64,000 nt of DNA, taken from positions 25,753-89,752 of the forward strand of contig JBPOIP010000030.1 in NCBI GenBank assembly GCA_052034395.1. Direction: 5' to 3'. The notes under the pieces are model-generated. The model was not told the origin of the DNA, made no database searches, and saw only the letters and a program-made list of their open reading frames with translations. The DNA is from Pseudomonadota bacterium. GTDB lineage: Bacteria; Pseudomonadota; Gammaproteobacteria; Burkholderiales; Burkholderiaceae_C. The translations under genes were made by a program, and so were the position numbers. Shown piece by piece: positions 6,093-27,670 of this stretch. Every line of letters begins with the position of its first letter. Position 1 is the first letter of the stretch.

Positions 6093-7436
6093 CTACGACA
6101 TTGTCGGTGTACCCAGTGTCTTCCTGACCCTATGCACGGGAAAGCCAACAGAAAATGTCGACCCCTGCCCAGGTGTACTTTCAATCGTCAACTCAGCCCC
6201 ATGGCGTTGTGCGACATGCTTGACAATGGCGAGACCCAAGCCCGTCCCGCCGGTGTCACGGGACCGACTACGATCGACCCGGTAAAAGCGCTCCGTCAAT
6301 CGCGGAATATGCTCCTGCGCAATTCCTGGTCCCTGATCCCGTACCTGAAACAGTGCATTGCCATCGGGCAACAACCTGAAACTCACCTCGATTCGCCCTC
6401 CACTCGGCGTGTACCGAATCGCGTTACTGATCAGATTCGAAATTGCGCTATGCAGTTCCACCGAAGAACCCGCAATTTCGTAGCCGTTTTCGCGATTGAA
6501 CGCCAGTTCATGCGGCTGAACAGACAATATCCGTGAAAGGTCCAGTGCGTCCTGTTCACACTGCCGCATCAGTAGATCCACCGAAACCCAGTCATGTACC
6601 GAAGGCAATGGACTGCCCTCCAGACGAGAAAGCGTCAACAAATCACTGACCAGCGTTTGCATGCGCTGGGCCTGCTGTGACATCAAACCCAGATAACGCT
6701 GACGCTCCTTTTCATCCAGTGACAGCGTCTGCAAAGTCTCAACAAAGCCCGCCAGAACGGTCAAAGGCGTGCGTATTTCATGCGACACGTTGGCAACGAA
6801 ATCCCTGCGCATGGCTTCGGCCTGTTCCACAGCCGTGATATCACGCGACAGCAAAAGGACACGCCCTTCGCCGTAGGGATGGAGATGCACTGACAGCTTC
6901 ACCGGCTTGAATGCATTGCTTGAGCGACCTGGCATCGTGATGTCGCTGTGGAAATTGCGCGCAGACAGATAAGCCGAAAAACCCGGGTCGCGCACCAGAT
7001 TGCCAATGTGCTGCAACATGTCTCGCCGCGCATCAAATCCGAAATGCTCAGCCGCAGTCTGGTTGAACCATTCAATGCGTGTATCGGAGTCCAGCAGCAC
7101 CACCCCATTGGGCGAAGCCTGCAGCGCTGCCAGAAAGTCTTCCAGACGGCTATCGCTTTCCTTGGCCAGGCGACTGCCAGCACGCAAAATGCGTCGCACA
7201 CGATCGTGTGCCTCACCCCAGAGTCCACTTCCGAGATTCAGTTCATTGGACGCACCGTCACGCAACCATCGCAGCAAGCGCAATCCACGCACGGAGTCCA
7301 TCACAAACCAAAGAAAACTCCCAGCCATCGCCAACGATAGCGCGGTGACCCATTGGTGCCCATCCAAGGCCAACACCCACCCCAAACCTGCGCCAAAGGC
7401 CTGACACAAAACCAGGGTGATAAACCGCCAAAACAT
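6093..7436 (-). CDS. phoR: Phosphate regulon sensor histidine kinase PhoR
   Basis: FVANVSHEIRTPLT H-box, NLISNAIRY, GTGLGLAIVKH, PAS region; downstream of phoB. Confidence 0.96.
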   Translation of the reverse strand: MFWRFITLVLCQAFGAGLGWVLALDGHQWVTALSLAMAGSFLWFVMDSVRGLRLLRWLRDGASNELNLGSGLWGEAHDRVRRILRAGSRLAKESDSRLEDFLAALQASPNGVVLLDSDTRIEWFNQTAAEHFGFDARRDMLQHIGNLVRDPGFSAYLSARNFHSDITMPGRSSNAFKPVKLSVHLHPYGEGRVLLLSRDITAVEQAEAMRRDFVANVSHEIRTPLTVLAGFVETLQTLSLDEKERQRYLGLMSQQAQRMQTLVSDLLTLSRLEGSPLPSVHDWVSVDLLMRQCEQDALDLSRILSVQPHELAFNRENGYEIAGSSVELHSAISNLISNAIRYTPSGGRIEVSFRLLPDGNALFQVRDQGPGIAQEHIPRLTERFYRVDRSRSRDTGGTGLGLAIVKHVAQRHGAELTIESTPGQGSTFSVGFPVHRVRKTLGTPTMS

Positions 7437-7454
7437 CAGATCGGCCCGCAGCAG

Positions 7455-8183
7455 CTACAGGCTCGCTTTTTCTGTTGAACTTGAAACAACCGAAGCAGGT
7501 GTGGCAGTCAGGCGATAGCCCGCGCCCCGCACGGTCTCCACCATGGCACCTGCCTGCGCAAGGGATTCGCGAAGCCGCTTGACGTGGACATCCACCGTAC
7601 GCTCTTCAATGTACACATGGTCACCCCACACGTTGTCCAGCAACTGCGCACGGCTGTGAACCCGCTCCCGATGTCCCATGAAGTAGTGCAGCAGCTTGAA
7701 CTCGGTTGGACCGAGTTTCAACGGCTGATTCTCAAATGAAACCCGGTGGGTCGCGGGATCCAGCACCAAACCACCCATGGTCATTACTTCACCTGCCTGC
7801 TCCGGTGTGCGCCGACGCAGCACAGCCCGTATGCGCGCCAGCAATTCCTTGGTCGAAAAAGGCTTGGCGATGTAGTCGTCTGCACCGGCATCCAGACCGG
7901 CAACGCGGTCTGCTTCGTCACCGCGGGCCGTCAACATGATCAACGGTACCGACTGTGTTTTGGGATCCGCGCGCCAGCGCTTGGCCAGCGTCAACCCACT
8001 CTCGCCGGGCAGCATCCAGTCCAGAAGGATCAAGTCCGGCAAACCTGCATCCAGATCACGCTGGGCCGTCACGCTGTCCATGGCCCAAATTGGCCGGAAA
8101 CCGTTATGTCGCAGGTTGACCGCGATAAGTTCCGCAATGGCAGCTTCATCTTCCACCACCAGAACAGACGGCATATTTCTCAT
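7455..8183 (-). CDS. phoB: Phosphate regulon response regulator PhoB
   Basis: Receiver domain (LLDWMLPG) plus OmpR-type wHTH (RTVDVHVKRLR); ATGA overlap with the phoU stop. Confidence 0.96.
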   Translation of the reverse strand: MRNMPSVLVVEDEAAIAELIAVNLRHNGFRPIWAMDSVTAQRDLDAGLPDLILLDWMLPGESGLTLAKRWRADPKTQSVPLIMLTARGDEADRVAGLDAGADDYIAKPFSTKELLARIRAVLRRRTPEQAGEVMTMGGLVLDPATHRVSFENQPLKLGPTEFKLLHYFMGHRERVHSRAQLLDNVWGDHVYIEERTVDVHVKRLRESLAQAGAMVETVRGAGYRLTATPASVVSSSTEKASL

Positions 8184-8881
8184 TTGATGACCAACTCGAT
8201 GTTTTCCATGGATGTGTGACGCACATCCTCACCTTTGACCACATAAATGATGAACTCGGCAATATTCTTGGAATGGTCACCAATCCGCTCAATCGCTTTG
8301 GCCAGAAACAACAGATCCAGACTGGGCGAAATCATGCGGGGATCCTCCATCATGTAGGTGATCAGTTTGCGCACAAAGCCGTCAAACTCCACATCGATCA
8401 AGTCGTCCTCTTTCAAGATGGAAACTGCTGCAGAAACATCCAGTCTCGCAAACGCATCCAGCGCCTTTCTGAGCAGTCCGGAGGCCAGATCGGCGGCAAC
8501 GCGCAGTTCCAGTGAAGGAAGCGACCGCGGGGATCCACTTTGTATGATGGAGCGAACCATACGGGCAATCTTTTCCGCCTCATCGCCCACTCGCTCGAGA
8601 TTCGCTGTCGTCTTGGAGATTGCAATCAAGAGGCGAAGGTCTCGCGCAGTCGGTTGGCGTCGTGCAATGATGGATGACAGTTCGCGATCAATTTCGACCT
8701 CCATCGCATTCACGCGTGCTTCATTCGCCGTCACCTCGTCAGAGACTTCAACGCTGAACTGTGACAACGCAAAAATGGCCCGGCGAATCTGTGACTCGAC
8801 CAAACCACCGAGCTCCATGACCTGTGAGGAGACCGAAGTCAGTTCACTGTCGAATTGTGTTGATAGGTGTTTATCAGGCAT
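8180..8881 (-). CDS. phoU: Phosphate signalling protein PhoU
   Basis: RRQPTARDLR, LERVGDEA, IERIGDHSKNIAE. Confidence 0.96.
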   Translation of the reverse strand: MPDKHLSTQFDSELTSVSSQVMELGGLVESQIRRAIFALSQFSVEVSDEVTANEARVNAMEVEIDRELSSIIARRQPTARDLRLLIAISKTTANLERVGDEAEKIARMVRSIIQSGSPRSLPSLELRVAADLASGLLRKALDAFARLDVSAAVSILKEDDLIDVEFDGFVRKLITYMMEDPRMISPSLDLLFLAKAIERIGDHSKNIAEFIIYVVKGEDVRHTSMENIELVIK

Positions 8882-8943
8882 GGGGGTCTCTCAATCTGTC
8901 TGCCGCAAAGCCCATTGCTCAGCATGCAGTGTGTAACACAACA

Positions 8944-9723
8944 TCATCCAAATCTTCCGGTAATGTAGTCTTCGGTTTCCTTGCGGTTGGGCTTGAAGAA
9001 CATTTGCTCCGTAGCGCCAAACTCCACCAGATCACCCAGATACATGTACGCCGTGTAATCGCTGCAACGTGCTGCCTGCTGCATGTTGTGCGTGACAATA
9101 ACCACGGTGTAATCGCTCTTGAGCTCCACGATCAACTCCTCGACCTTGGCGGTGGATATGGGGTCAAGCGCTGAACAGGGTTCATCGAGCAACAATACTT
9201 CGGGCTTGATCGCGATACCGCGCGCAATGCAAAGGCGTTGCTGCTGTCCACCCGACAGGCTCGAACCGCTCTGGTGCAATTTATCCTTTACCTCAGTCCA
9301 CAACGCAGACTTGCGCAGTGCCCACTCCACACGCTCTTCCATATCGGTGGCGCTAAGCGACTCAAACAATTTCACACCAAACGCGATGTTGTCAAAAATG
9401 GACATCGGAAACGGCGTGGGCTTCTGAAAAACCATGCCAACCTTGGCGCGCAACAGTGCGACATCTTCCTTGCTCTTCAGCAAGTTCTCACCGTCGAGCA
9501 TGATCTCGCCCTCCGCCCGCTGTTCCGGGTACAGCTCAAACATGCGGTTGAAAACGCGCAACAGCGTCGACTTGCCACAACCGGATGGACCGATGAAGGC
9601 CGTCACCTTGTTCTCGGGAATCTGCAGGTTGATGCTTTTGAGCGCGTGGAACTTGCCGTAGTAAAAATTCAGGTCCTTGACCGAAATCTTTGTCTTTTCG
9701 GTTGCCATAGTGGTGTTCAGCAT
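8944..9723 (-). CDS. pstB: Phosphate ABC transporter ATPase PstB
   Basis: [39 protein letters not shown]. Confidence 0.97.
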
Positions 9724-9756
9724 GGAGTTTTTCAGGTTGTTAGCTGCGAAGAAGAA

Positions 9757-10620
9757 TCAGATCCTGGAGCGGGTCAGTACCCGGGCAAGAATGTTCAGAC
9801 CCAAAACCGCTGCGGTGATGATAAAAACGCCAGCCCACGCCAGCTTTTGCCAGTTCTCATAGGGACTCATGGCAAACTTGAAAATGGTCACTGGCAGGCT
9901 TGCCATCGGCTCACTGAGACTGCTGGTCCAGAACTGGTTGCTCAATGCCGTGAATAGCAAAGGCGCCGTCTCACCGGCAATACGCGCTACCGCCAGGAGG
10001 ACACCCGTGATCACGCCGGCTCGCGCCGCCTTGAGCGTGATGCTCAAAATGACCTTCCACTTGGGCGCACCCAACGCATAAGCTGCTTCGCGCAAACCGG
10101 GTGGAACCAGCTGAAGCATGTTCTCTGTGGTGCGGATAACCACCGGAATCACCAGCAGTGATAAAGCCAGGATCCCCGCATAGCCCGAAAAGGACTTGAA
10201 TCGGGACACCACAACGGCATACACAAATAGTCCGATCACAATGGATGGCGCAGACAGCAAAATATCATTCACAAAACGCGTCAAAGACGCCAGCCAACCC
10301 TTGGTATTGAACTCTGCCAGATAGATCCCCGCCATCACCCCGATGGGCGTGCCCAACCCGGTTGCCAGAACCACCATCAACAATGAACCGAAGATGGCGT
10401 TTGCCAATCCGCCCTCATCATTGGGAGGAGGCGTCATTTGCGTGAAGGTGGCGACCGACAATCCACCAATACCCAACAGCAATGTTTCCCACAAAATCCA
10501 GAACAACCAGAAGAGCCCGAAGGACATAGCCGCCAACGCCAAGGTCGTAGCCACGTTGTTCACAACTTTGCGGCGCGCAAATTTGGCTGCGCGTGACTGT
10601 TTTTCTGCGAGCGTGCTCAT
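9757..10620 (-). CDS. pstA: Phosphate ABC transporter permease PstA
   Basis: [13 protein letters not shown] motif, [11 protein letters not shown]. Confidence 0.95.
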
Positions 10621-11648
10621 GTTTTTGTACCTTCGCCTTTGCGCAGCTGGGACAGCAATAACTTGGACAGCGAGAGGATCACAAATGTAATAAAGAACAG
10701 CACCAATCCAAGGTACATCAACGATGCCTGGTGCAAGCCCTCACCCGCTTCGGCGAACTCATTGGCCAGCGCCGAGGTAATGCTGTTTGCCGCCTGAAAC
10801 AAGCTGAGCGAGTCCAACTGGTTGAAGTTTCCGATAACAAAAGTCACCGCCATGGTCTCGCCAATGGCACGGCCCAGGCCCAGCATGATTCCGCCAATGA
10901 CTCCCGCTTTTGTGTAGGGCAGGACAACCTTGGTGACAACCTCCCACGTCGTCGCGCCCAGCCCATAGGCGGACTCTTTCAGCAACGGAGGCGTGACTTC
11001 AAACACATCGCGCATCACTGCTGCGATAAATGGGATGATCATGATGGCCAGAATCACCCCGGCCGACAGGATACCGATACCAACCGGCGGTCCGGACACG
11101 AAAGCGCCAAGGTATGGAACCCCGGCAAATGCGGCCTGGAGTGGCTGTTGCACATACGTTGCCAGCACAGGCCCGAACACCAGCAAACCCCACATGCCAT
11201 ACACAATGGACGGCACGGCCGCCAGCAACTCGATAGCGGTACCCAATGGCCGCTTGAGCCACGCTGGCGACAACTCGGTCAAAAACAACGCAATACCAAA
11301 GCTCACGGGAACGGCGATCAACAAAGCGATGAAAGACGTTGCCAGCGTTCCATAAATCATCACCAGACCGCCAAATTCCTCCTTGACCGGATCCCATGTC
11401 GTGTTGGTCAAGAAACCAAGCCCGTACTTTTCAATGGCGGGCCATGCACTGATGGTCAGTGAAACCAGAATGGCAACCAGCATTCCCAAAGTTATGAGCG
11501 CAGCACCCTGGGCCATCCAGCCAAAGATACGGTCGGCCATGGGGCCGGAACGGGCCCTTTTGATAGGTGGAGGGTGGATCATTGCGCGAACTGACGGTGT
11601 TGCAGATTGGTGGGACGAAAAGTCGCCACTGGCCAGTGTAGATGACAT
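10617..11648 (-). CDS. pstC: Phosphate ABC transporter permease PstC
   Basis: [31 protein letters not shown]. Confidence 0.95.
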
Positions 11649-11689
11649 ATTCAGCTTTCGGTATCAACCCGAATGGCTTTTACCGCGCC

Positions 11690-12733
11690 TTACTTGAAGG
11701 CTATGGGCTTGCCAGAACCGTCCTTGATCTCGCCCCAGGCCTTTTCGATGGCGGCGATCACGGGCTTTGGCATGGGCACATAGTCCAGGTCTGCAGCGGT
11801 CTTTTCGCCGTTGGCATATGCCCAGCTAAAGAACTTCAACACTTCGGTCGCATTGGCAGGCTTGTCCTGCTTCGTATGCATCAACACAAAGGTGGCTCCA
11901 GAAATTGGCCAGGCGTCCTTGCCGGGCTGGTTTGTCAGAATCTGATAAAAAGACTTGGCCCAATCCGCACCAGCGGCCGCGGCTTTGAACGAGTCATCTT
12001 CCGGCTTGACGAAATTGCCGGCAGAGTTCTGCACGGTGGCATAGGTCATTTTGTTTTGCTTGACATAGGAATACTCTACGTATCCCATGGAATTTGGCAG
12101 GCGACCCACAAACGCTGCAACGCCCTCATTGCCTTTGCCACCAGCACCAACCGGCCAGTTGACGGCAGTACCCTCGCCTACCTTGGACTTCCACTCCGGG
12201 CTAATCTTGCTCAGGTAGTTGGTAAAGATAAAGGTCGTACCGGAACCATCAGCGCGGCGAACCTGCGCAATGGCGGCGTCTGGCAAAGCCAAAGTCGGGT
12301 TCAGGGCCTTCAGGGCCGGGTCATTCCAGCGCGAAATCTTGCCCAAGTAGATGTCAGCCAAAAGGGTGCCTGTCAACTTCAGTTGTCCAGGCTCAATACC
12401 CTTGACATTGATCACCGGAACAACGCCACCCATCACCGTTGGAAACTGCATTTGCCCTTTGGTCTTCAGCACTTCATCTGTTTGCGGCATGTCCGAAGCG
12501 CCAAAGTCCACTGTATTGGAGTCGATCTGCTTGATACCGCCACCTGAGCCGATGGACTGGTAATTGACCTTGACCTTGGTCGCCTTGTTGTAATCAGCTG
12601 CCCATTTGGAATAGATCGGCGCCGGGAAAGTCGCACCGGCACCGGTGATTTCCTGGGCGCCAGCGGCACCCGCAAAACCCAATGTTGATACGACCGCCAG
12701 GGACAGGAGTGGGAGTTTGAAAGTGATTCGCAT
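11690..12733 (-). CDS. pstS: Phosphate-binding protein PstS
   Basis: Signal peptide, GAGATFPAP, YQSIGSGGG, RADGSGTT. Confidence 0.97.
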   Translation of the reverse strand: MRITFKLPLLSLAVVSTLGFAGAAGAQEITGAGATFPAPIYSKWAADYNKATKVKVNYQSIGSGGGIKQIDSNTVDFGASDMPQTDEVLKTKGQMQFPTVMGGVVPVINVKGIEPGQLKLTGTLLADIYLGKISRWNDPALKALNPTLALPDAAIAQVRRADGSGTTFIFTNYLSKISPEWKSKVGEGTAVNWPVGAGGKGNEGVAAFVGRLPNSMGYVEYSYVKQNKMTYATVQNSAGNFVKPEDDSFKAAAAGADWAKSFYQILTNQPGKDAWPISGATFVLMHTKQDKPANATEVLKFFSWAYANGEKTAADLDYVPMPKPVIAAIEKAWGEIKDGSGKPIAFK

Positions 12734-12786
12734 GGATAACCTTTAGTTCGGTTGATTGAGGAATGAAAGGACTTTAAGAAAGTAAT

Positions 12787-12804
12787 GTGACAGCTATGTG
12801 ACAA
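12787..12804 (-). promoter_or_regulatory. Pho box of the pstS promoter
   Basis: Minus strand TTGTCAC-ATAG-CTGTCAC, then 10 nt, then TAAAGT (12771-12776). Confidence 0.85.
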
Positions 12805-12887
12805 ACCCATACAAATTGAGATACCCCTCGAAATGCAGCAAGGCATCAGTTCACCAGGCAACTGTGTTCAATTGACCCTTCATGGAA

Positions 12888-12905
12888 CTGTCACACGCCT
12901 GTCAC
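12888..12905 (+). promoter_or_regulatory. Pho box upstream of the fasciclin gene
   Basis: CTGTCAC-ACGC-CTGTCAC, then 10 nt, then TACGCT (12916-12921). Confidence 0.8.
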
Positions 12906-12954
12906 AAGAGGCTCTTACGCTTTGATGCTTTCAACCCCAACGATGGAACGCACC

Positions 12955-13455
12955 ATGTCACTGTTCAATGTTTCTACACCTTCCCGCCGTGCCGCTCTGG
13001 TCGCAGGTCTTGTCCTTTCATTGGCCGGCTGCGCAACGCCTTCCGGCCCGGTCAGCCTGGCAGACACCATCGCCGCCAACCCGTCCCTCAGCACCCTGAA
13101 CGAATTGGTTATCAAAGCCGGGCTCACCGACACACTGAAGACCGGTGGCCCGTTCACCGTGTTTGCACCTACCAACGACGCCTTCAAGGCCGTACCCGCT
13201 GCCGCCATGGCTGACCTGGCACAGCATCCCGACAAGCTCAAAGCGGTGCTGACCTACCACGTCATTCCCGGAAAGACCATGGCAGCCGACGTCAAGAACA
13301 GCAACGTCAAGACGGTCAATGGCGCCAATCTGGCTTTGGCGAAGGCAGGTGATTTTGTAACGGTCGAAAGCGGTGCGGTCGTGGCTTCCAACCTGGTCGC
13401 AACAAACGGCGTCATCCACACGGTGGACACGGTGCTGATGCCTCCCAAGAAGTAA
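12955..13455 (+). CDS. Fasciclin (FAS1) domain lipoprotein
   Basis: Lipobox LAGC; GPFTVFAPTNDAF and ATNGVIHTVDTVL FAS1 motifs. Confidence 0.9.
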   Translation: MSLFNVSTPSRRAALVAGLVLSLAGCATPSGPVSLADTIAANPSLSTLNELVIKAGLTDTLKTGGPFTVFAPTNDAFKAVPAAAMADLAQHPDKLKAVLTYHVIPGKTMAADVKNSNVKTVNGANLALAKAGDFVTVESGAVVASNLVATNGVIHTVDTVLMPPKK

Positions 13456-21098: not shown

Positions 21099-21551
21099 AT
21101 GACAACCGAAGCTTCCAAACCCGTCAAACCGTTGACAACCCCAGCAAAAACTGCACCCGAAGCGGCTGTCAAACCAGCAGCCAAGTCCGTAAAGGTCGTG
21201 GCATCCAAAGTGGCATCCAAGATGGCAAAAACCCCCACCACCAAGCCCAAAGCCGTGCCTGCACCCAAAGTAACGACCAAATCGGCAAGCGCACCACAAG
21301 CCGCCAAAGACGCCAAAGTCAAGAAGCCCAAAATGGTTCGCGACAGCTTTACGTTCCCGAAAGACGAGTATGCAGTGCTGGACTTGCTGAAGCTGCGCGC
21401 GGCCAAGCTGGGCAGTCCGGTGAAAAAAACCGAGTTGCTGCGCGCCGGTGTAAAGGCCATTGCGGCTATGGCAGACGATGCATTCCTGCTCTCACTGCGC
21501 GCTGTGCCCAGCCTCAAGACAGGCCGCCCTGCCAAAAGCAAGTCGGCGTAA
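21099..21551 (+). CDS. Lys/Ala/Pro-rich histone-H1-like tail plus VRDSF-type (RHH-like) C-terminal domain
   Basis: 18 Lys in the first 78 aa; C-terminal KMVRDSFTFPKDEY...KKTELLRAGV...KTGRP. Confidence 0.8.
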   Translation: MTTEASKPVKPLTTPAKTAPEAAVKPAAKSVKVVASKVASKMAKTPTTKPKAVPAPKVTTKSASAPQAAKDAKVKKPKMVRDSFTFPKDEYAVLDLLKLRAAKLGSPVKKTELLRAGVKAIAAMADDAFLLSLRAVPSLKTGRPAKSKSA

Positions 21552-21558
21552 GGCACAC

Positions 21559-22020
21559 TTACATCAAGTCAGGCGTCTGGACCGTCACCACCACGGTTTG
21601 CCCGGTGGCGTCGCGCTCACGGTAGCGCAGCCACCATACTGCCCCTTTCTTGACAGCGCATTCCGATGCGCTCAAACCCAACAAGCTTGAAACAGTCTGT
21701 CCCAGCGTGGGTTGATGGCCCACGACCAGCACACAGCCTTTGGCGTGTGGCCATTGGACCAACTCCAGCAACTGGTCTGCGGCCCCCATTGGGGCAATCA
21801 CCGGGTTCAATTTGAACTTTCGCCCCAAAGCCAGCGCCGTCTGCTCCGCACGGCGTGCGGGGCTCACCCATATGCGTGTGCTGTCTGGCAACTGGCGGTC
21901 CAGCCAGGCCGCCATGCGAGTGGCCTGCTTTTCGCCACGCGGGGTCAGCGCCCGGAGCATGTCGTCACTGTCGGCTGTGCCTTCCACGGCCTCTGCGTGC
22001 CGCCACAAAATCAGGTCCAT
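21559..22020 (-). CDS. sixA: Phosphohistidine phosphatase SixA
   Basis: LILWRHAEA, SPARRAEQT, LVVGHQPTL. Confidence 0.92.
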   Translation of the reverse strand: MDLILWRHAEAVEGTADSDDMLRALTPRGEKQATRMAAWLDRQLPDSTRIWVSPARRAEQTALALGRKFKLNPVIAPMGAADQLLELVQWPHAKGCVLVVGHQPTLGQTVSSLLGLSASECAVKKGAVWWLRYRERDATGQTVVVTVQTPDLM

Positions 22021-22034
22021 CGTTCGCTCTCCGT

Positions 22035-24128
22035 TCAGGCCTTCTCAACGTCTGCGTAACGCGCCATCAGTGCAACCTGGGCACCATGCAATGGGGTCTT
22101 TCCATCTCCCTGGAAGCGCCGGTATTTGCCGTCTGCACCCAGATCCCATGCGTCAACGCCATCGTGCAGGTAGGCCACCAGACACTCGTCAACCAGTCGC
22201 TGGCGTTGGACCGGGTCGGTCACGGGCCACGCCAGTTCCACGCGACGCACCATGTTGCGGTTCATCCAGTCGGCACTGGAGAGGTAAAGGTCTTCGTTAT
22301 CGCCTTCACGGAAATAGAAAACCCGCGAGTGCTCCAGAAACCGGCCAATCACCGAACGCACCCGAATGTTGTCAGTGTGCCCTGGCACCTGTGCGGGCAG
22401 CATGCAGGCGCCGCGCACAATCAGGTCGATCCGCACACCCTGGCGACCAGCCCGCATCAAACTGTGAATCAGCGCTTCGTCGGTCAGCGAGTTCATTTTG
22501 GCAACGATACGGGTAGCTTTGCCCCGGCTTGCTGCAGCGCCCAGTGCATCAATCCTTGCAATCATGTTGCGGTGCAGGTTGAAGGGTGCAAACCACAACT
22601 TGCGCAACCGCGGCAAACGACTTTGGCTTGCCAGATGCACAAACACATGCTCCATATCGGTTGTGAGCGCCGTGTCAGCTGTGATATGGCTTACATCGGT
22701 GTAAAGGCGTGCCGTGCGCGGGTTGTAATTGCCCGTCGACAGATGACCATAGCGTTTGAGGTTCTTGCCCTCGCGCCGCGTGATCAGCATCATCTTGGCG
22801 TGGGTTTTGAGGCCCACCACGCCATACAGCACCTGCGCTCCAATGGATTCGAGCATTTCGGCCCAGTTGATATTGGCTTCTTCGTCAAAGCGGGCCTTTA
22901 GCTCCACCACCACGGTAACTTCTTTGCCCAGACGCACGGCTTCGCGCAGCAGATCCATCAATTCGGAGTCGGGGCCAGTGCGGTAAATGGTTTGCTTGAT
23001 GGCCAATACATTCGGATCATTCACCGCTTCACGCAAAAGCCCCAGCACCCCATCAAAGCTCTCAAAGGGCTGGTGAATCAGAATGTCGCCCTGCTTCAAT
23101 TGCTCAAAAATGCTTTGTCCATTTGCCATTTGAGCAGGGTAGGACGCACGGTACGGTGTAAAACACAGGTCCGGGCGGTCAACCAGGTCAATAAGCTGGG
23201 TCAATCGCACCAGGTTCACCGGACCTGCCACGCGGTACAGGGCTTTGGCAGGCAAATCAAACTGTTTGAGCAAGAAATCAGACAGGTACTCGGAACAACC
23301 CGCCGACACCTCCAAGCGGACCGCCTGCCCGTAATGGCGGTGAACCAGCCCCTGACGCAGGGCCATGCGCAGGTTTTTGACATCGTCTTCGTCCACGGCC
23401 AGATCAGAATGCCGCGTCACACGGAACTGCGAGAACTGCCCCACCGAGCGCCCCGCAAACAGCTCAGCCAGGTGCGCGCGGATGATGCTCGACAGTGACA
23501 CGAACAGCAGGCGGTCACCCGAAACCTTGGCAGGCATGCGGATCAGGCGCGGCAGCACGCGCGGCACCTTGACGATGGCAATTTCATTCTCGCGACCAAA
23601 CGCATCCCGCCCGCCCAGACGCACGATAAAGTTCAGCGACTTGTTGGCGACTTGCGGAAACGGGTGGGATGGGTCCAGACCCACCGGAATCAGCAACGGG
23701 CGTACTTCCCGCTCGAAATACTGCTTGACCCAGTGGCGTTGCGCCGCATTGCGTTCGCCGTGGGAAATGATCTTGATGCCAAGTTTCTCAAACGCCGGCA
23801 TCAGTTTCTCGTTGTAAAGCGTGTATTGCCGCTCAACGATAGCGTGCACCGTTGCCGACAATCGCTCGAACGAGCCTACCGAAAACAGGCCCTTTCGTTC
23901 TTTGGCCTGATTGGCGGTCAGGTGCGGCTCGGCACGCACTTCAAAAAACTCGTCAAGATTGGATGAAACGATGCACAGATAGCGCAAACGCTCCAGCAGC
24001 GGAACATCATCGCGAACAGCCCAGTCCAGCACACGCTCATTGAAGGCAAGAATGCTGTGGTCGCGGTCCAGCAGATCGGGCGCCTCCAGGGGAGCCTGCA
24101 ATTTGGGGTTGCGAAGAAATGACAACAT
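22035..24128 (-). CDS. ppk1: Polyphosphate kinase 1
   Basis: SSNLDEFFEVR, SHPFPQV, IKQTIYRT, ELKARFDEEANI, KTHAK, GRFLEHSR, SSADWMNRN. Confidence 0.97.
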   Translation of the reverse strand: MLSFLRNPKLQAPLEAPDLLDRDHSILAFNERVLDWAVRDDVPLLERLRYLCIVSSNLDEFFEVRAEPHLTANQAKERKGLFSVGSFERLSATVHAIVERQYTLYNEKLMPAFEKLGIKIISHGERNAAQRHWVKQYFEREVRPLLIPVGLDPSHPFPQVANKSLNFIVRLGGRDAFGRENEIAIVKVPRVLPRLIRMPAKVSGDRLLFVSLSSIIRAHLAELFAGRSVGQFSQFRVTRHSDLAVDEDDVKNLRMALRQGLVHRHYGQAVRLEVSAGCSEYLSDFLLKQFDLPAKALYRVAGPVNLVRLTQLIDLVDRPDLCFTPYRASYPAQMANGQSIFEQLKQGDILIHQPFESFDGVLGLLREAVNDPNVLAIKQTIYRTGPDSELMDLLREAVRLGKEVTVVVELKARFDEEANINWAEMLESIGAQVLYGVVGLKTHAKMMLITRREGKNLKRYGHLSTGNYNPRTARLYTDVSHITADTALTTDMEHVFVHLASQSRLPRLRKLWFAPFNLHRNMIARIDALGAAASRGKATRIVAKMNSLTDEALIHSLMRAGRQGVRIDLIVRGACMLPAQVPGHTDNIRVRSVIGRFLEHSRVFYFREGDNEDLYLSSADWMNRNMVRRVELAWPVTDPVQRQRLVDECLVAYLHDGVDAWDLGADGKYRRFQGDGKTPLHGAQVALMARYADVEKA

Positions 24129-24166
24129 ATGCACGCCTTGACTATGACACAGGAGTGAAGAATTGT

Positions 24167-25249
24167 TTACGAAATTGATGACAGTGGTGTGACGTTTCCA
24201 TGAAGCAAGGGGCGCACATCCAGCAAGTTGCCCTTGCGCGCAGGAACCAGCTGATTTAGAAACAGTTGGGCGGCGGGACCCCAACCGAACGCCAACGCGC
24301 GCTCGCGGGCCAGGTGGCGTGGCACCGCAAGCGCCCCATACCAGGCGCGGGCCAGATCATCGTCCAGCACACCACCGGCTGGTGGTGACCCTACTACTTC
24401 CAGTGGTCCATCCACCGGGTAGGCCGCCACCGGTGTGCCGGTGGCCATTGCTTCTAGCATCACCAGACCAAAGGTTTCCGAGCGACTGGGCATGACAAAT
24501 ACATCAGCGGATGCATACACCTGGGCCAACACATCCCGCGGAAGTACGCCAAGCCAGTGCGCCTTGGGAAACCGCTGGCGCAATCCTTCCTCCAGAGGCC
24601 CGACACCACAAACAATTTTGGTCCCTGGGATGTCGAGCGTCAGAAAAGCCTCAATGTTCTTCTCGTAGGAAACGCGACCGACAAAGAGGGATATGGGACG
24701 GGCCAGCTGTCCCAGCGGTGCATAGGGCTGGGGTACCTCGCAATACGTGAACAGTTGCATGTCGACGCCATGCGTCCAGTTGCGCAGGTTGGGAAATCCT
24801 TTGGCCTGCAATATCTTCAGTACGTTGTGCGTAGGCACCAAGACGCCCGAGGAGTGCTTGTGAAAGTGCCGGAACAGCGCGTAGCCCATCCACAATGGAA
24901 CTTTCAACGCAGCTTTCAGTATTTCGGGAAACCGCGTGTGGTACGCCGTGGTGAACGCCAGAGCGCGCTTTATGCAATAGGCGCGTGCGGCCCAGCCCAG
25001 CGGACCTTCGGTGGCCAGATGAATGGCATCCGGCGCAATGGCATCGAGCCGGCGTGCCAGAGTCTTCGCAGGACGCACTGCAAGATCAATTCCGGCATAG
25101 CCCGGGCAAGGCCGGGTATCAAAAAATCCAGGATGTATGACTTCGACCTGGTGCCCCAGGGCTTGCATCTCGCGCACCAGCTCCACCAGGGTCGTGACAA
25201 CGCCATTGACCTGTGGCTGCCATGCATCGGTCACCAGGACCAGCTTCAT
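24167..25249 (-). CDS. GT4 glycosyltransferase, Agt-like (predicted glyco/glucuronosyl-DAG synthase)
   Basis: VTDAWQPQVNGVVTTL, IHLATEGPLG, FVGRVSYEKNIEAFL, SRSETFGLVMLEAMATG; 4-nt overlap with the plcP-like gene. Confidence 0.85.
   Translation of the reverse strand: MKLVLVTDAWQPQVNGVVTTLVELVREMQALGHQVEVIHPGFFDTRPCPGYAGIDLAVRPAKTLARRLDAIAPDAIHLATEGPLGWAARAYCIKRALAFTTAYHTRFPEILKAALKVPLWMGYALFRHFHKHSSGVLVPTHNVLKILQAKGFPNLRNWTHGVDMQLFTYCEVPQPYAPLGQLARPISLFVGRVSYEKNIEAFLTLDIPGTKIVCGVGPLEEGLRQRFPKAHWLGVLPRDVLAQVYASADVFVMPSRSETFGLVMLEAMATGTPVAAYPVDGPLEVVGSPPAGGVLDDDLARAWYGALAVPRHLARERALAFGWGPAAQLFLNQLVPARKGNLLDVRPLLHGNVTPLSSIS
24178..24195 (-). promoter_or_regulatory. Pho box upstream of ppk1, inside the 3' end of the glycosyltransferase gene
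   Basis: Minus strand ACGTCAC-ACCA-CTGTCAT, then 10 nt, then AACAAT. Confidence 0.6.
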
Positions 25250-26127
25250 GCCAGTGCCGCTTGAGGAGTCGGCACGGGTATCACGGCGGCCTCTGCATCG
25301 TTCCAGTAAACCAGTTCCAGCCGCCCATCGTGGTGCTCAACCAGTGCGCTGCGGCTTTCCACCCAGTCGCCATCATTGCAGTACAGGGTGCCGTGAATGT
25401 CACGCATCTCTGCGCGGTGGATATGCCCGCACACCACACCATCGTGTCCATGGGCACGCGCAGCTTGCGCCACCGCCACCTCGAAGTCGGTCACGTAATT
25501 GAGCGCTGATTTGACTTTTTGCTTCAGGTAAGCCGACAGCGACCAGTAGGGCAGCCCCATGCGCGCCCTGAGCGTATTGAGGTAACGATTGAGCTTGAGC
25601 GTGAATTCATACAGGTTGTCGCCCAAGAAGGCCAGCCACTTGGCGCATTGAATGACACCATCGAAATAGTCGCCATGCGTGACCCACAGGCGTCGCCCGT
25701 CGGCTGTGGTGTGCACGGCATCGTCACGAACCTCAATGCCGCCGAACTCATGACCCAAAAAGCCCCGGGCAAACTCGTCATGGTTGCCAGGAATGAACAC
25801 CACTTTGCAGCCTTTACGCGCGCGGCGCAGCAGTTTTTGGACCACATCGTTATGCGACTGGGGCCAGTACCAGCGCCGGCGCAACTGCCAGCCGTCCACA
25901 ATGTCGCCCACGAGGTAGAGGTGATCGCTGGAGTGAACCTTGAGAAAATCCAGCAATGCATTGGCCTGACAGCCCGCCGTGCCCAGATGAATGTCCGAAA
26001 TGAAAATGGCCCGGTAGCGCCTCGCACGCTGATCGTCATCTTCATCATGGGAGTCAACGCTGTTTGGCTGGGGCACACCCAGCATGCCTTGCATCAGGGG
26101 CGAGAAGGCATCAGGCCCGGCACGCAT
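25246..26127 (-). CDS. Metallophosphoesterase, PlcP/LpxH2-like (predicted phospholipase C)
   Basis: FISDIHLG, LVGDIVDGW, PGNHD, THGD, CGHIH, NDGDWVES; ATG overlaps the upstream TGA. Confidence 0.85.
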   Translation of the reverse strand: MRAGPDAFSPLMQGMLGVPQPNSVDSHDEDDDQRARRYRAIFISDIHLGTAGCQANALLDFLKVHSSDHLYLVGDIVDGWQLRRRWYWPQSHNDVVQKLLRRARKGCKVVFIPGNHDEFARGFLGHEFGGIEVRDDAVHTTADGRRLWVTHGDYFDGVIQCAKWLAFLGDNLYEFTLKLNRYLNTLRARMGLPYWSLSAYLKQKVKSALNYVTDFEVAVAQAARAHGHDGVVCGHIHRAEMRDIHGTLYCNDGDWVESRSALVEHHDGRLELVYWNDAEAAVIPVPTPQAALA

Positions 26128-26972
26128 CAGGCGCCCAGAAAGTGTTTGCGATAACGTGATGGCAAATCGGCAATGCGCATCATCATCGGAAGGTCCGCCG
26201 AGTTGAAGTCGGGGTCCCACGCCGGCGGGCCAAGAACCTTGGCGCCCAGGCGCAAATAGCCCTTTATCAGTGCGGGCGGCTCCACCTCCAGCGAAGCATC
26301 CAGCCGTTCAACCGGCAGGGGCAGGCGGGGGCGAACATGGTATTCAATCGGTGCCAGATGGGTGGCCTGAACCTGGCGCCAGATGCTGGCCGCCATGTCG
26401 CCACTGGCAACACCGTTGTGCAACATGGGTATGCTGGCGCACCCAATCATCGTGTCGAGCTGGTTGCGCACCATGAATGCGCCCAATGCACCCCACAACG
26501 CCATGATCACTCCGCCATGGCGGTGGTCCTTGTGCACGCAGCTGCGCCCCAGTTCCACCATGCGGTCCCGCAGGCTGCGCAGCCGGGTCAGGTCAAACTC
26601 CGTGTCGCTGTAGGTGCTGCCCACGCGCTGTGCCTGCACCGGTGTGAGCACGCGGTAGGTTCCGATAACCTGCTCGCTTGCCGCATCAATCACCAGCAGA
26701 TGTTCGCAGAAGTTGTCAAAGAGGTCGATGTCGTGCCCCGGAATGGGCGTGTTCAGCCGCGCGCCCATTTCGCCAGCGAACACATCGTGGCGCAGCCGCT
26801 GAGCGGCGCGTACTTCATCCTGGTGCCTGGCCCAGGTCACCCGAATCGCGGCGCGCTCCTGTGCGGCAGTGTGTGCGCCAGCGGCTTGTGCGGTGCAAAG
26901 GGCATCGGCCGTGCCAAAAGTCTGCGTTGTTTGCAGGGAAGATGCGCTTCCCGATGCGGTGGAACCCGTCAT
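26127..26972 (-). CDS. GNAT-fold N-acyltransferase, OlsB-like (ornithine lipid synthesis)
   Basis: AQRLRHDVFAGEMGA, DIDLFDNFCEHLLV, VIGTYRVL, VELGRSCVH, PALIKGYLRLGAKV, DPDFNSAD. Confidence 0.8.
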   Translation of the reverse strand: MTGSTASGSASSLQTTQTFGTADALCTAQAAGAHTAAQERAAIRVTWARHQDEVRAAQRLRHDVFAGEMGARLNTPIPGHDIDLFDNFCEHLLVIDAASEQVIGTYRVLTPVQAQRVGSTYSDTEFDLTRLRSLRDRMVELGRSCVHKDHRHGGVIMALWGALGAFMVRNQLDTMIGCASIPMLHNGVASGDMAASIWRQVQATHLAPIEYHVRPRLPLPVERLDASLEVEPPALIKGYLRLGAKVLGPPAWDPDFNSADLPMMMRIADLPSRYRKHFLGA

Positions 26973-26974
26973 GC

Positions 26975-27205
26975 TCAACCTCCGTGTTGCACAGTGAGGC
27001 TCAAATCGCCACCACCCTGATGGAGCGCATCAAGCCAGGGTCGCGTGCCTGCCCGAAACCGCAGGCCTCCAGGTCTATTGGCCAGTGCACGCGCCGTGCA
27101 TCGCAAAATGCGCAGGCACTGGTGTTCCAGATCGTGGGTAAATCGCTGGTGCGTAGCCGCATGGGCCTGACCGGACTGTTTTGGGTGGTGCAATTGCGCT
27201 TCCAT
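26975..27205 (-). CDS. Putative 76-aa His-rich small protein, first ORF of the olsB-like operon
   Basis: GGAG RBS before ATG; stop 2 nt before the olsB-like start; no recognisable domain. Confidence 0.35.
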   Translation of the reverse strand: MEAQLHHPKQSGQAHAATHQRFTHDLEHQCLRILRCTARALANRPGGLRFRAGTRPWLDALHQGGGDLSLTVQHGG

Positions 27206-27252
27206 CTTTTTTCTCCGTCGTGCGTGTTATGGCGCAATTCTGGGAGGCCAAG

Positions 27253-27292
27253 ATGACGCCTGCACGTCAGTTCGATGGCAGTTTCATGACAG
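27253..27292 (-). promoter_or_regulatory. Quadruple Pho box upstream of the lipid-remodelling/ppk1 operon
   Basis: Minus strand CTGTCAT-GAAA-CTGCCAT-CGAA-CTGACGT-GCAG-GCGTCAT, then 10 nt, then CAGAAT. Confidence 0.75.
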
Positions 27293-27357: not shown

Positions 27358-27394
27358 ATATGTTCCAATCAAGCATGTTCAATAAGGAGCCACC

Positions 27395-27670
27395 ATGCAA
27401 ACTGTATTGACACCTGTCACACGGATACCCACTTCAGGGCGCTCCGCATTCACTGCCGGTCCTGCGATCAATGTGTCCAAACACGTAGACGAGGCAGCAC
27501 GCCTGACCATGGATATTCTGGGGCTGCCGTTTGACGTCGCCCGCGCCCAATATGCCCGGGCAGTGCAGGTCGGGCTGATCCAGCGATCCATGCTGGCATC
27601 GCGTGACTTTTCGCGCACGGTTGGCGCACTGGAACAAATCACGCTGGGACCTTGGGCGCGCCACGTCTAG
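27395..27670 (+). CDS. Hypothetical protein, 91 aa
   Basis: Strong AAGGAG RBS; ordered-looking C-terminal half (ARAQYARAVQVGLIQRSML). Confidence 0.65.
   Translation: MQTVLTPVTRIPTSGRSAFTAGPAINVSKHVDEAARLTMDILGLPFDVARAQYARAVQVGLIQRSMLASRDFSRTVGALEQITLGPWARHV

Follow-up and report, generated by a model that had tools for sequence, protein, structure and literature searches.

Control of plcP-agt, olsB and ppk by the phosphate (Pho) regulon has been reported previously (PMC4796936, PMC8528852, PMC7814305, PMC4415409). Among the closest described systems is the plcP-agt-dagK operon of Burkholderia cenocepacia (BCAL2364-2366), the proteins of which are induced under limitation of inorganic phosphate (Pi); plcP and agt of this operon have been validated by mutants, complementation and expression of agt in Escherichia coli, which yields MGDG, GADG and KGADG (PMC13691135). 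The ornithine lipid enzyme OlsB (Bcal1281) of B. cenocepacia has been validated as well, and Pho boxes have been predicted before olsB in Burkholderia sensu lato (PMC7814305). In Burkholderia glumae, depletion of Pi co-induces Agt, PPK1 and PPK2 from unlinked loci (PMC13700237). Here we describe a locus within a 64,000-nucleotide (nt) stretch of a bacterial genome (positions 25,753 to 89,752 of contig JBPOIP010000030.1, assembly GCA_052034395.1; hereafter, the window) where homologues of such genes form a single array in the order small gene, olsB, plcP, agt, ppk1 and sixA. We consider it probable that this array consists of two tandem, co-oriented, PhoB-activated units that belong to a larger phosphate island (phoR-phoB-phoU-pstBACS, ppx and CYTH-CHAD).

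Like the B. cenocepacia plcP-agt-dagK operon, the locus in the window is betaproteobacterial and encodes PlcP followed by an Agt-type GT4 glycosyltransferase. Unlike that operon, it includes the small gene and olsB before plcP and ppk1-sixA after agt, has Glu at the position of the Agt catalytic acid, and shows no recognisable dagK after agt (in Burkholderia sp. BCC0506, where dagK was sought behind agt, the one next open reading frame (ORF) tried had no Pfam match). A plcP gene that is preceded by a Pho box and located right upstream of a diacylglycerol-glycosylating GT4 is also found in Sinorhizobium meliloti, Phaeobacter/SAR11 and Pseudomonas aeruginosa (PA3219-PA3218) (PMC4796936, PMC8528852, PMC8231724); His104 and the GRVAxEKN motif are likewise shared with these systems, whereas the catalytic acid is Asp in the Sinorhizobium/SAR11/Pseudomonas-type Agt and Glu in that of the window. 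At least in the text searched, none of the six types of plcP neighbourhoods described for marine bacteria has olsB upstream or ppk1-sixA downstream, in contrast to the window. With the OlsB/OlsA pathway of B. cenocepacia, the locus shares a single-copy OlsB homologue with a Pho box upstream but differs from it in the coupling of olsB to plcP, the presence of the small gene before olsB and the unlinked location of the OlsA candidate. Finally, a Pho box, a sixA gene after ppk1 and ppx, CHAD, pst and pho genes nearby are all shared by the locus with the known Pho-regulated ppk1 neighbourhoods (PMC4415409, PMC12995831), from which it differs in that the ppk1 promoter is located inside the coding end of a lipid gene and all the genes belong to one uninterrupted co-directional array.

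The initial annotation of the window treated the six genes as one predicted operon behind a four-repeat Pho box. The co-orientation and the short gaps that underlie this prediction hold, but ppk1-sixA have a conserved Pho box and a -10 element of their own (P2), which had been missed. The two-repeat core of P2 (ACGTCAC-acca-CTGTCAT, 24195-24178) lies within the last codons of the GT4 gene, so that the C-terminal tail of Agt is the translated P2 box. Of the 24 sequences compared, 21 have such a core upstream of ppk1 with a score of 9-10 of 10, including those from a locus that lacks the GT4 gene (L020) and from Thiobacillus (L102), where ppk1 is located upstream of plcP. The -10 hexamer is found at a constant spacing of 10 nt, with A2 present in 22, A4 in 20 and T6 in 22 of the 24 sequences. 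Given that P2 is conserved while the overlapping tail of the GT4 protein is not conserved among the aligned proteins, selection appears to act on the DNA site. Because ppk1-sixA have their own promoter, the link to polyphosphate (polyP) would be mediated mainly by the shared PhoB control of the two tandem units and does not call for a single transcript.

The Pho box ahead of the small gene (P1) is not significant genome-wide when treated as a bare pattern (2 sites with at most one mismatch in 4.55 Mb compared to about 1.5 expected by our own estimate), and therefore the case for this element rests on its conservation. For most of the relatives, the Pho box was not detected by a strict search for CTGTCAT-N4-CTGTCAT that allowed up to three mismatches but was recovered with a score for the phased four-repeat core. 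Under this score, the four-repeat element with the 11-bp phase ranks first among the sites upstream of olsB in 36/36 relatives, which include other families of the order, and in 33 of these, the score is matched by no more than 2.5% of the shuffles. The -10 hexamer (cAnAnT) retains A2 and T6 in 32 of the 33 aligned promoters, again with the spacing fixed at 10 nt. The four-repeat Pho box that the initial annotation placed ahead of the cluster is thus supported by comparison with the relatives. The predicted geometry of P1 is that of a classical PhoB-dependent promoter, with the repeats, the putative binding sites of PhoB, in the -35 position, and PhoB is predicted to bind P2 as well; both PhoB and PhoR are encoded within the window.

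In the two-unit arrangement, the first unit, driven by P1, would encode the small protein, OlsB, PlcP and Agt. OlsB would produce lyso-ornithine lipid that an OlsA-like enzyme encoded elsewhere would complete to ornithine lipid, PlcP would cut phospholipids into diacylglycerol and a phospho-headgroup, and the Agt-type GT4 would glycosylate the diacylglycerol to yield a phosphorus-free glycolipid. The second unit, driven by P2 from within the 3' end of agt, would supply PPK1 and a SixA-type phosphohistidine phosphatase. Within the cluster, the minus strand contains no predicted intrinsic terminator, and the agt-ppk1 junction shows neither a predicted terminator nor a predicted stable RNA structure, so that transcripts from P1 could continue into ppk1-sixA. 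The activities of the enzymes are predicted by homology to the validated enzymes of Burkholderia, Pseudomonas, Sinorhizobium and SAR11. We infer this transcript structure, and any physiological link of lipid-derived phosphorus to polyP is best read as co-regulation within the Pho regulon rather than as dedicated channelling.

The six co-oriented ORFs and their junctions are as initially described, all on the minus strand and with gaps of at most 38 nt (Table 1). The small gene, olsB, plcP and agt appear to be translationally coupled (2-nt gap, TGATG and ATGA, respectively), and the GGAGG ribosome-binding site of olsB is located within the 3' end of the small gene. The long alternative starts listed for ppk1 at 24284 and for plcP at 26220 (TTG/GTG) were dropped in favour of the ATG codons at 24128 and 26127, from which the relatives align.

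Table 1. Genes and predicted promoter elements of the array; positions refer to the window.
Feature	Position	Strand	Details
P1 Pho box	27292-27253	-	four 7-nt repeats, 11-bp phase: CTGTCAT-gaaa-CTGCCAT-cgaa-CTGACGT-gcag-GCGTCAT
P1 -10-like hexamer CAGAAT	27237..27242	-	10 nt past the fourth repeat
Small gene (sORF), 76 amino acids (aa)	27205-26975	-	GGAGA ribosome-binding site; TGA-gc-ATG, 2-nt gap to olsB
OlsB-type N-acyltransferase, 281 aa	26972-26127	-	TGATG with plcP, 1-nt overlap
PlcP-type metallophosphoesterase, 293 aa	26127-25246	-	ATGA with agt, 4-nt overlap
Agt-type GT4 glycosyltransferase, 360 aa	25249-24167	-	TAA stop 24169-24167; 38-nt gap to ppk1
P2 Pho box	24178..24206	-	GCTTCAT-ggaa-ACGTCAC-acca-CTGTCAT; within the 3' end of agt; 50-79 nt upstream of the ppk1 start codon
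P2 -10-like hexamer AACAAT	24162..24167	-	10 nt past the last repeat, ~34 nt before the ppk1 ATG
ppk1, polyphosphate kinase 1, 697 aa	24128-22035	-	14-nt gap to sixA
SixA-type histidine phosphatase, 153 aa	22020-21559	-	last gene of the array

The linkage between the lipid genes and ppk1 was assessed in a census of 80 named species loci, of which 67 were informative for the proximity of ppk1 within 9 kb. The complete olsB-plcP-agt-ppk1-sixA array is present in 14 species loci, from Ca. Aalborgicola, Acidovorax, Limnohabitans, Curvibacter and other Comamonadaceae/Burkholderiales. In 24 loci, ppk1 stands in tandem right behind plcP or agt, including variants without agt or without olsB, and 12 further loci have ppk1 within 9 kb in some other arrangement, such as the convergent one in Undibacterium or the upstream location in Thiobacillus; in the remaining 31 informative loci, there is no ppk1 nearby. 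Altogether, linkage was detected in 36/67 informative loci compared to about 0.4% expected by chance, which is our estimate for one gene, an 18-kb window and a genome of ~4.5 Mb. Five loci (L020, L050, L054, L058 and L059) have olsB-plcP-ppk1-sixA without agt, and in another one (L051), which contains olsB-plcP-sixA, no intervening ppk1 was detected. Among the informative loci without a nearby ppk1, those of Burkholderia sp. BCC0506, Paraburkholderia, Cupriavidus and Chromobacterium and several alphaproteobacterial ones have plcP-agt alone. The sixA gene follows ppk1 in nearly all relatives. This linkage may reflect the organisation of Pho islands as much as a specific coupling because SixA, CHAD, PPX and Pst are typical neighbours of PPK (PMC12995831).

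In Cupriavidus necator (L123, 2302-3723) and Paraburkholderia nodosa (L126, 2341-3711), the single olsB homologue adjoins a convergent gene. Going by the N-terminal translation only, with no family search, this gene is tentatively read as Ppx-like; if this reading is correct, the tie between olsB and polyP genes would extend beyond Comamonadaceae.

Each of the genes olsB, plcP, agt (close copies) and ppk1 is present in a single copy in the genome. PPK1 contains the four PPK1 Pfam domains and is far above the cut-offs of two curated models (1073 bits for NF003918 with the cut-off of 691, and 864 bits for TIGR03705 with the cut-off of 466). SixA belongs to PF00300, has the N-terminus MDLILWRHAEA with the RHA catalytic motif and only marginally passes the TIGR00249 model (75.3 bits compared to the cut-off of 74.5). 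Agt consists of the GT4 domains PF13439 and PF00534, with an invariant His104 and the GRVSYEKN motif. It is encoded directly downstream of plcP, with an ATGA overlap, and is homologous to Agt of the B. cepacia complex (51-53% identity), which bears out its initial identification as the Agt-type partner of plcP. The window protein has the motif MPSRSETFG, and all four aligned Comamonadaceae proteins have (S/H)ETFG as opposed to TDTFG in Burkholderia, Cupriavidus, Chromobacterium and alphaproteobacteria. In GTcp, for which the UDP-sugar motif GRVAxEKN and His104 were also defined, Asp256 within FPSxTDTFG is catalytic, and the D256E substitution resulted in the loss of more than 90% of the activity (PMC8231724).

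The identities of the other two lipid enzymes require weighing against alternatives. It is highly improbable that the phosphoesterase is an enzyme of lipid A synthesis, that is, a paralogue of LpxH within a cluster for envelope or lipopolysaccharide biosynthesis. By name, its top curated matches are indeed LpxH models, and E. coli LpxH (5wly) is the closest protein of known structure, but these matches are weak, with 47 and 43 bits compared to the cut-offs of 134 and 190 for the models and merely 22.5 bits for the structure, whereas a separate gene on contig C68 passes the LpxH model NF003743 with 223 bits (cut-off 134). The protein contains a Metallophos domain (PF00149/PF12850) with intact metal-binding motifs (DxH, GD, GNHD/E, H and GHxH), in which D45, H47, D75, N115, H116, H151, H235 and H237 are invariant among 15 sequences. 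Homology and synteny with the validated PlcP-Agt operons, behind a Pho box, point to PlcP: Burkholderia latens and Burkholderia sp. BCC0506 encode homologues with 58-59% identity to the protein, in both cases with agt after plcP; PlcP orthologues of the B. cepacia complex are more than 84% identical to the validated BCAL2364 (PMC13691135), and the mutual identity of the validated PlcPs is just 46-47% (PMC8528852). The initial view of the phosphoesterase as PlcP-type rather than LpxH can thus be retained, as can that of the GNAT protein as a homologue of OlsB, which is the only such copy in the genome. The OlsB-like enzyme could instead produce another aminolipid or N-acyl amino acid, such as a glutamine, lysine or glycine lipid, an alternative that we regard as rather doubtful. 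The enzyme contains a PF13444 domain (117.6 bits) and has the curated OlsB models as its top matches, but with scores (154/146 bits) below the cut-offs of 350/320; OlsB paralogues of different amino-acid specificity do exist, GlsB being one (PMC6298996), and there is no adjacent olsA. However, in the B. cepacia complex, the single-copy homologue of the validated Bcal1281 has similar scores with the same models (162/159), which indicates that the cut-offs are clade-specific, and the Bacteroidetes GlsB model yields just 19.9 bits for the window protein. Furthermore, OlsB from the window, itself single-copy, is 54-55% identical to that B. cepacia-complex homologue and has 51-61% identity with the lone homologue of each of five named genomes of Burkholderia, Paraburkholderia, Cupriavidus and Chromobacterium, and an OlsA-like acyltransferase is encoded elsewhere in the genome (G000 C99:5663-6397, minus strand), in accord with the initial remark that the window itself lacks OlsA. 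The OlsA models are the top matches of this candidate (131 and 113 bits), and its gene appears to be the last one after pyrB-like and pyrC'-like ORFs, which were read as such from their translations without a family search. In databases, the genes do carry generic labels, such as 'GNAT family N-acyltransferase' and 'putative hemolysin', as had been anticipated.

With regard to the organisation of the array, transcription of all six genes from P1 alone, with the Pho-box-like sequence of ppk1 being a non-functional relic or having merely a modulating role, appears quite improbable. The same co-orientation, the gaps of up to 38 nt and the lack of a predicted terminator are compatible with such an operon, as is the mismatch in the P2 core of the window. 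Nevertheless, P2 and its -10 element are found at constant spacing in most of the 24 relatives, including loci without agt and one with ppk1 upstream of plcP, and the conservation of P2 within a non-conserved protein tail argues for selection on the DNA site. Only slightly less unlikely is a dedicated coupling, whereby the phosphorus released by PlcP would be fed into polyP via PPK1, with SixA tuning the phospho-histidine of PPK1 and the small protein playing a coordinating role. The presence of plcP and/or olsB within 9 kb of ppk1-sixA in over half of the informative loci, in at least six arrangements, suggests selection for proximity, and the putative Ppx-like neighbour of olsB in Cupriavidus and Paraburkholderia would fit such a coupling. 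In terms of general enzymology, however, the leaving group of the PlcP reaction is a phospho-headgroup rather than Pi, and the substrate of PPK1 is ATP. The sequence does not show that phosphate from the membrane passes into polyP; as described in the literature, the product of PlcP is diacylglycerol (PMC13700237), and each unit has its own Pho box. In addition, the loci for Agt and PPK1 are unlinked in Burkholderia and yet co-induced (PMC13700237), clusters of ppk, ppx, CHAD and SixA with pst/pho genes are common in any case (PMC12995831), and the small protein tracks olsB or plcP rather than ppk1. Several observations also weigh against the two-unit organisation that we favour, or against the activities assigned to it. 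The P2 core of the window is slightly degenerate (ACGTCAC...CTGTCAT, 9 of 10); the replacement of Asp by Glu in Agt may mean that the activity or the sugar donor differs; the OlsA candidate is unlinked, is not preceded by a Pho box and scores below the curated cut-off (131 compared to 300), so that ornithine lipid synthesis would have a constitutive second step provided that this candidate is OlsA; and agt is missing from some relatives, or plcP occurs on its own, which implies that the modules are separable.

The small ORF is, judging from its pattern of conservation, a real gene. In nine loci, an open frame is maintained between P1 and olsB, always before olsB, with frame-preserving indels, and the encoded proteins share the core FEQQCLRVLRCTAxALANSPGGLRFxAGTxPWLDAL; for the gene of the window, the core reads ...QCLRILRCTAxALAxxPGGLRFxAGTRPWLDAL. 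For the 36-codon core, comparison of the window with seven relatives yields ratios of nonsynonymous to synonymous substitution rates (dN/dS) of 0.05-0.11 at dS of 0.9-1.9. A profile search retrieved 135 representatives, with 101 clusters at E<=1e-10, nearly all of them 55-130 aa long; no Pfam or NCBIfam model matches the protein. The gene precedes olsB, plcP, GT4, ppk1 and sixA in one of the contexts found (P0043), olsB, ppk1 and sixA in another (P0082), and plcP, with PPK2 nearby, in a third (P0101); in every context inspected, it leads olsB or plcP, and in these three, it overlaps the next gene. Most of the relatives lack the small gene, and in these, the Pho box is close to olsB. The AlphaFold model contains one confident helix (residues 17-43) and little else, with a mean pLDDT of 64. 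It is conceivable, albeit doubtful, that Pho-regulated lipid remodelling involves this protein as a new component dedicated to it, perhaps as a helical adaptor that activates OlsB/PlcP or targets these enzymes to the membrane, and that the Comamonadaceae array as a whole is a supra-operon in which the degradation of phospholipids and the production of phosphorus-free lipids and of polyP are integrated in function rather than just co-regulated, with SixA acting on the phospho-histidine of PPK1.

The phosphate island that hosts the cluster includes phoR, phoB, phoU, pstB and pstS, all identified by family search (6093-12733, minus strand), and the pair of ORFs that separates pstB from pstS presumably represents pstA and pstC, given its position. 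Also present in the island are a Ppx/GppA-family gene, a CorA-like gene, an atypical pyruvate kinase gene and a divergent CYTH-CHAD gene. The pstS gene is preceded by its own Pho boxes. Between pstS (minus strand) and a gene for a fasciclin-domain protein (12922-13455, plus strand, PF02469), there are two back-to-back Pho boxes (12776-12905) that yield the local PhoB consensus CTGTCAC/T. The region between P1 and the CYTH-CHAD gene contains a 91-aa ORF on the plus strand (27395-27670) with a strong AAGGAG ribosome-binding site; this ORF shows 59-66% identity in four same-genus relatives (G013, G021, G023) and has no Pfam match. An 87-aa ORF on the minus strand (27379-27642) was rejected as a gene, being the antisense shadow of the conserved 91-aa ORF. 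At the other end of the array, sixA is convergent with a gene for a Lys/Ala-rich 150-aa protein (21099-21551, plus strand), with 7 nt between the two stop codons; this gene neighbours sixA in many relatives, and its product, which has no Pfam match, shows 44-85% identity over the C-terminal part. The named relatives place the host, a freshwater bacterium, within Comamonadaceae, close to Rhodoferax and Ca. Aalborgicola, in agreement with its initial assignment to betaproteobacteria.

A full-text search of the literature for plcP together with polyphosphate kinase, for olsB together with plcP and for sixA together with ppk found no description of the fused arrangement or of the small protein. 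All the enzymes are of known kinds and no new mechanism is involved, so the novelty of the locus is modest; its most original by-products are the small-protein family and the clade of Agt with the Asp-to-Glu replacement.

In Comamonadaceae that abound in freshwater and wastewater (Rhodoferax, Limnohabitans, Acidovorax and Ca. Aalborgicola), the modules for ornithine lipid, glycolipid and polyP synthesis are joined behind two predicted and conserved PhoB promoters. The array therefore represents a compact marker locus for the physiology of phosphorus stress in metagenomes and metatranscriptomes. The linkage of plcP/olsB with ppk1-sixA recurs across Burkholderiales in several arrangements, and an unannotated family of small proteins is linked to olsB/plcP. 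The Glu-bearing Agt clade bears on the specificity for the sugar donor. Correct naming of the genes that are now labelled GNAT, 'hemolysin', LpxH-like or GT1/GT4 would improve annotation.

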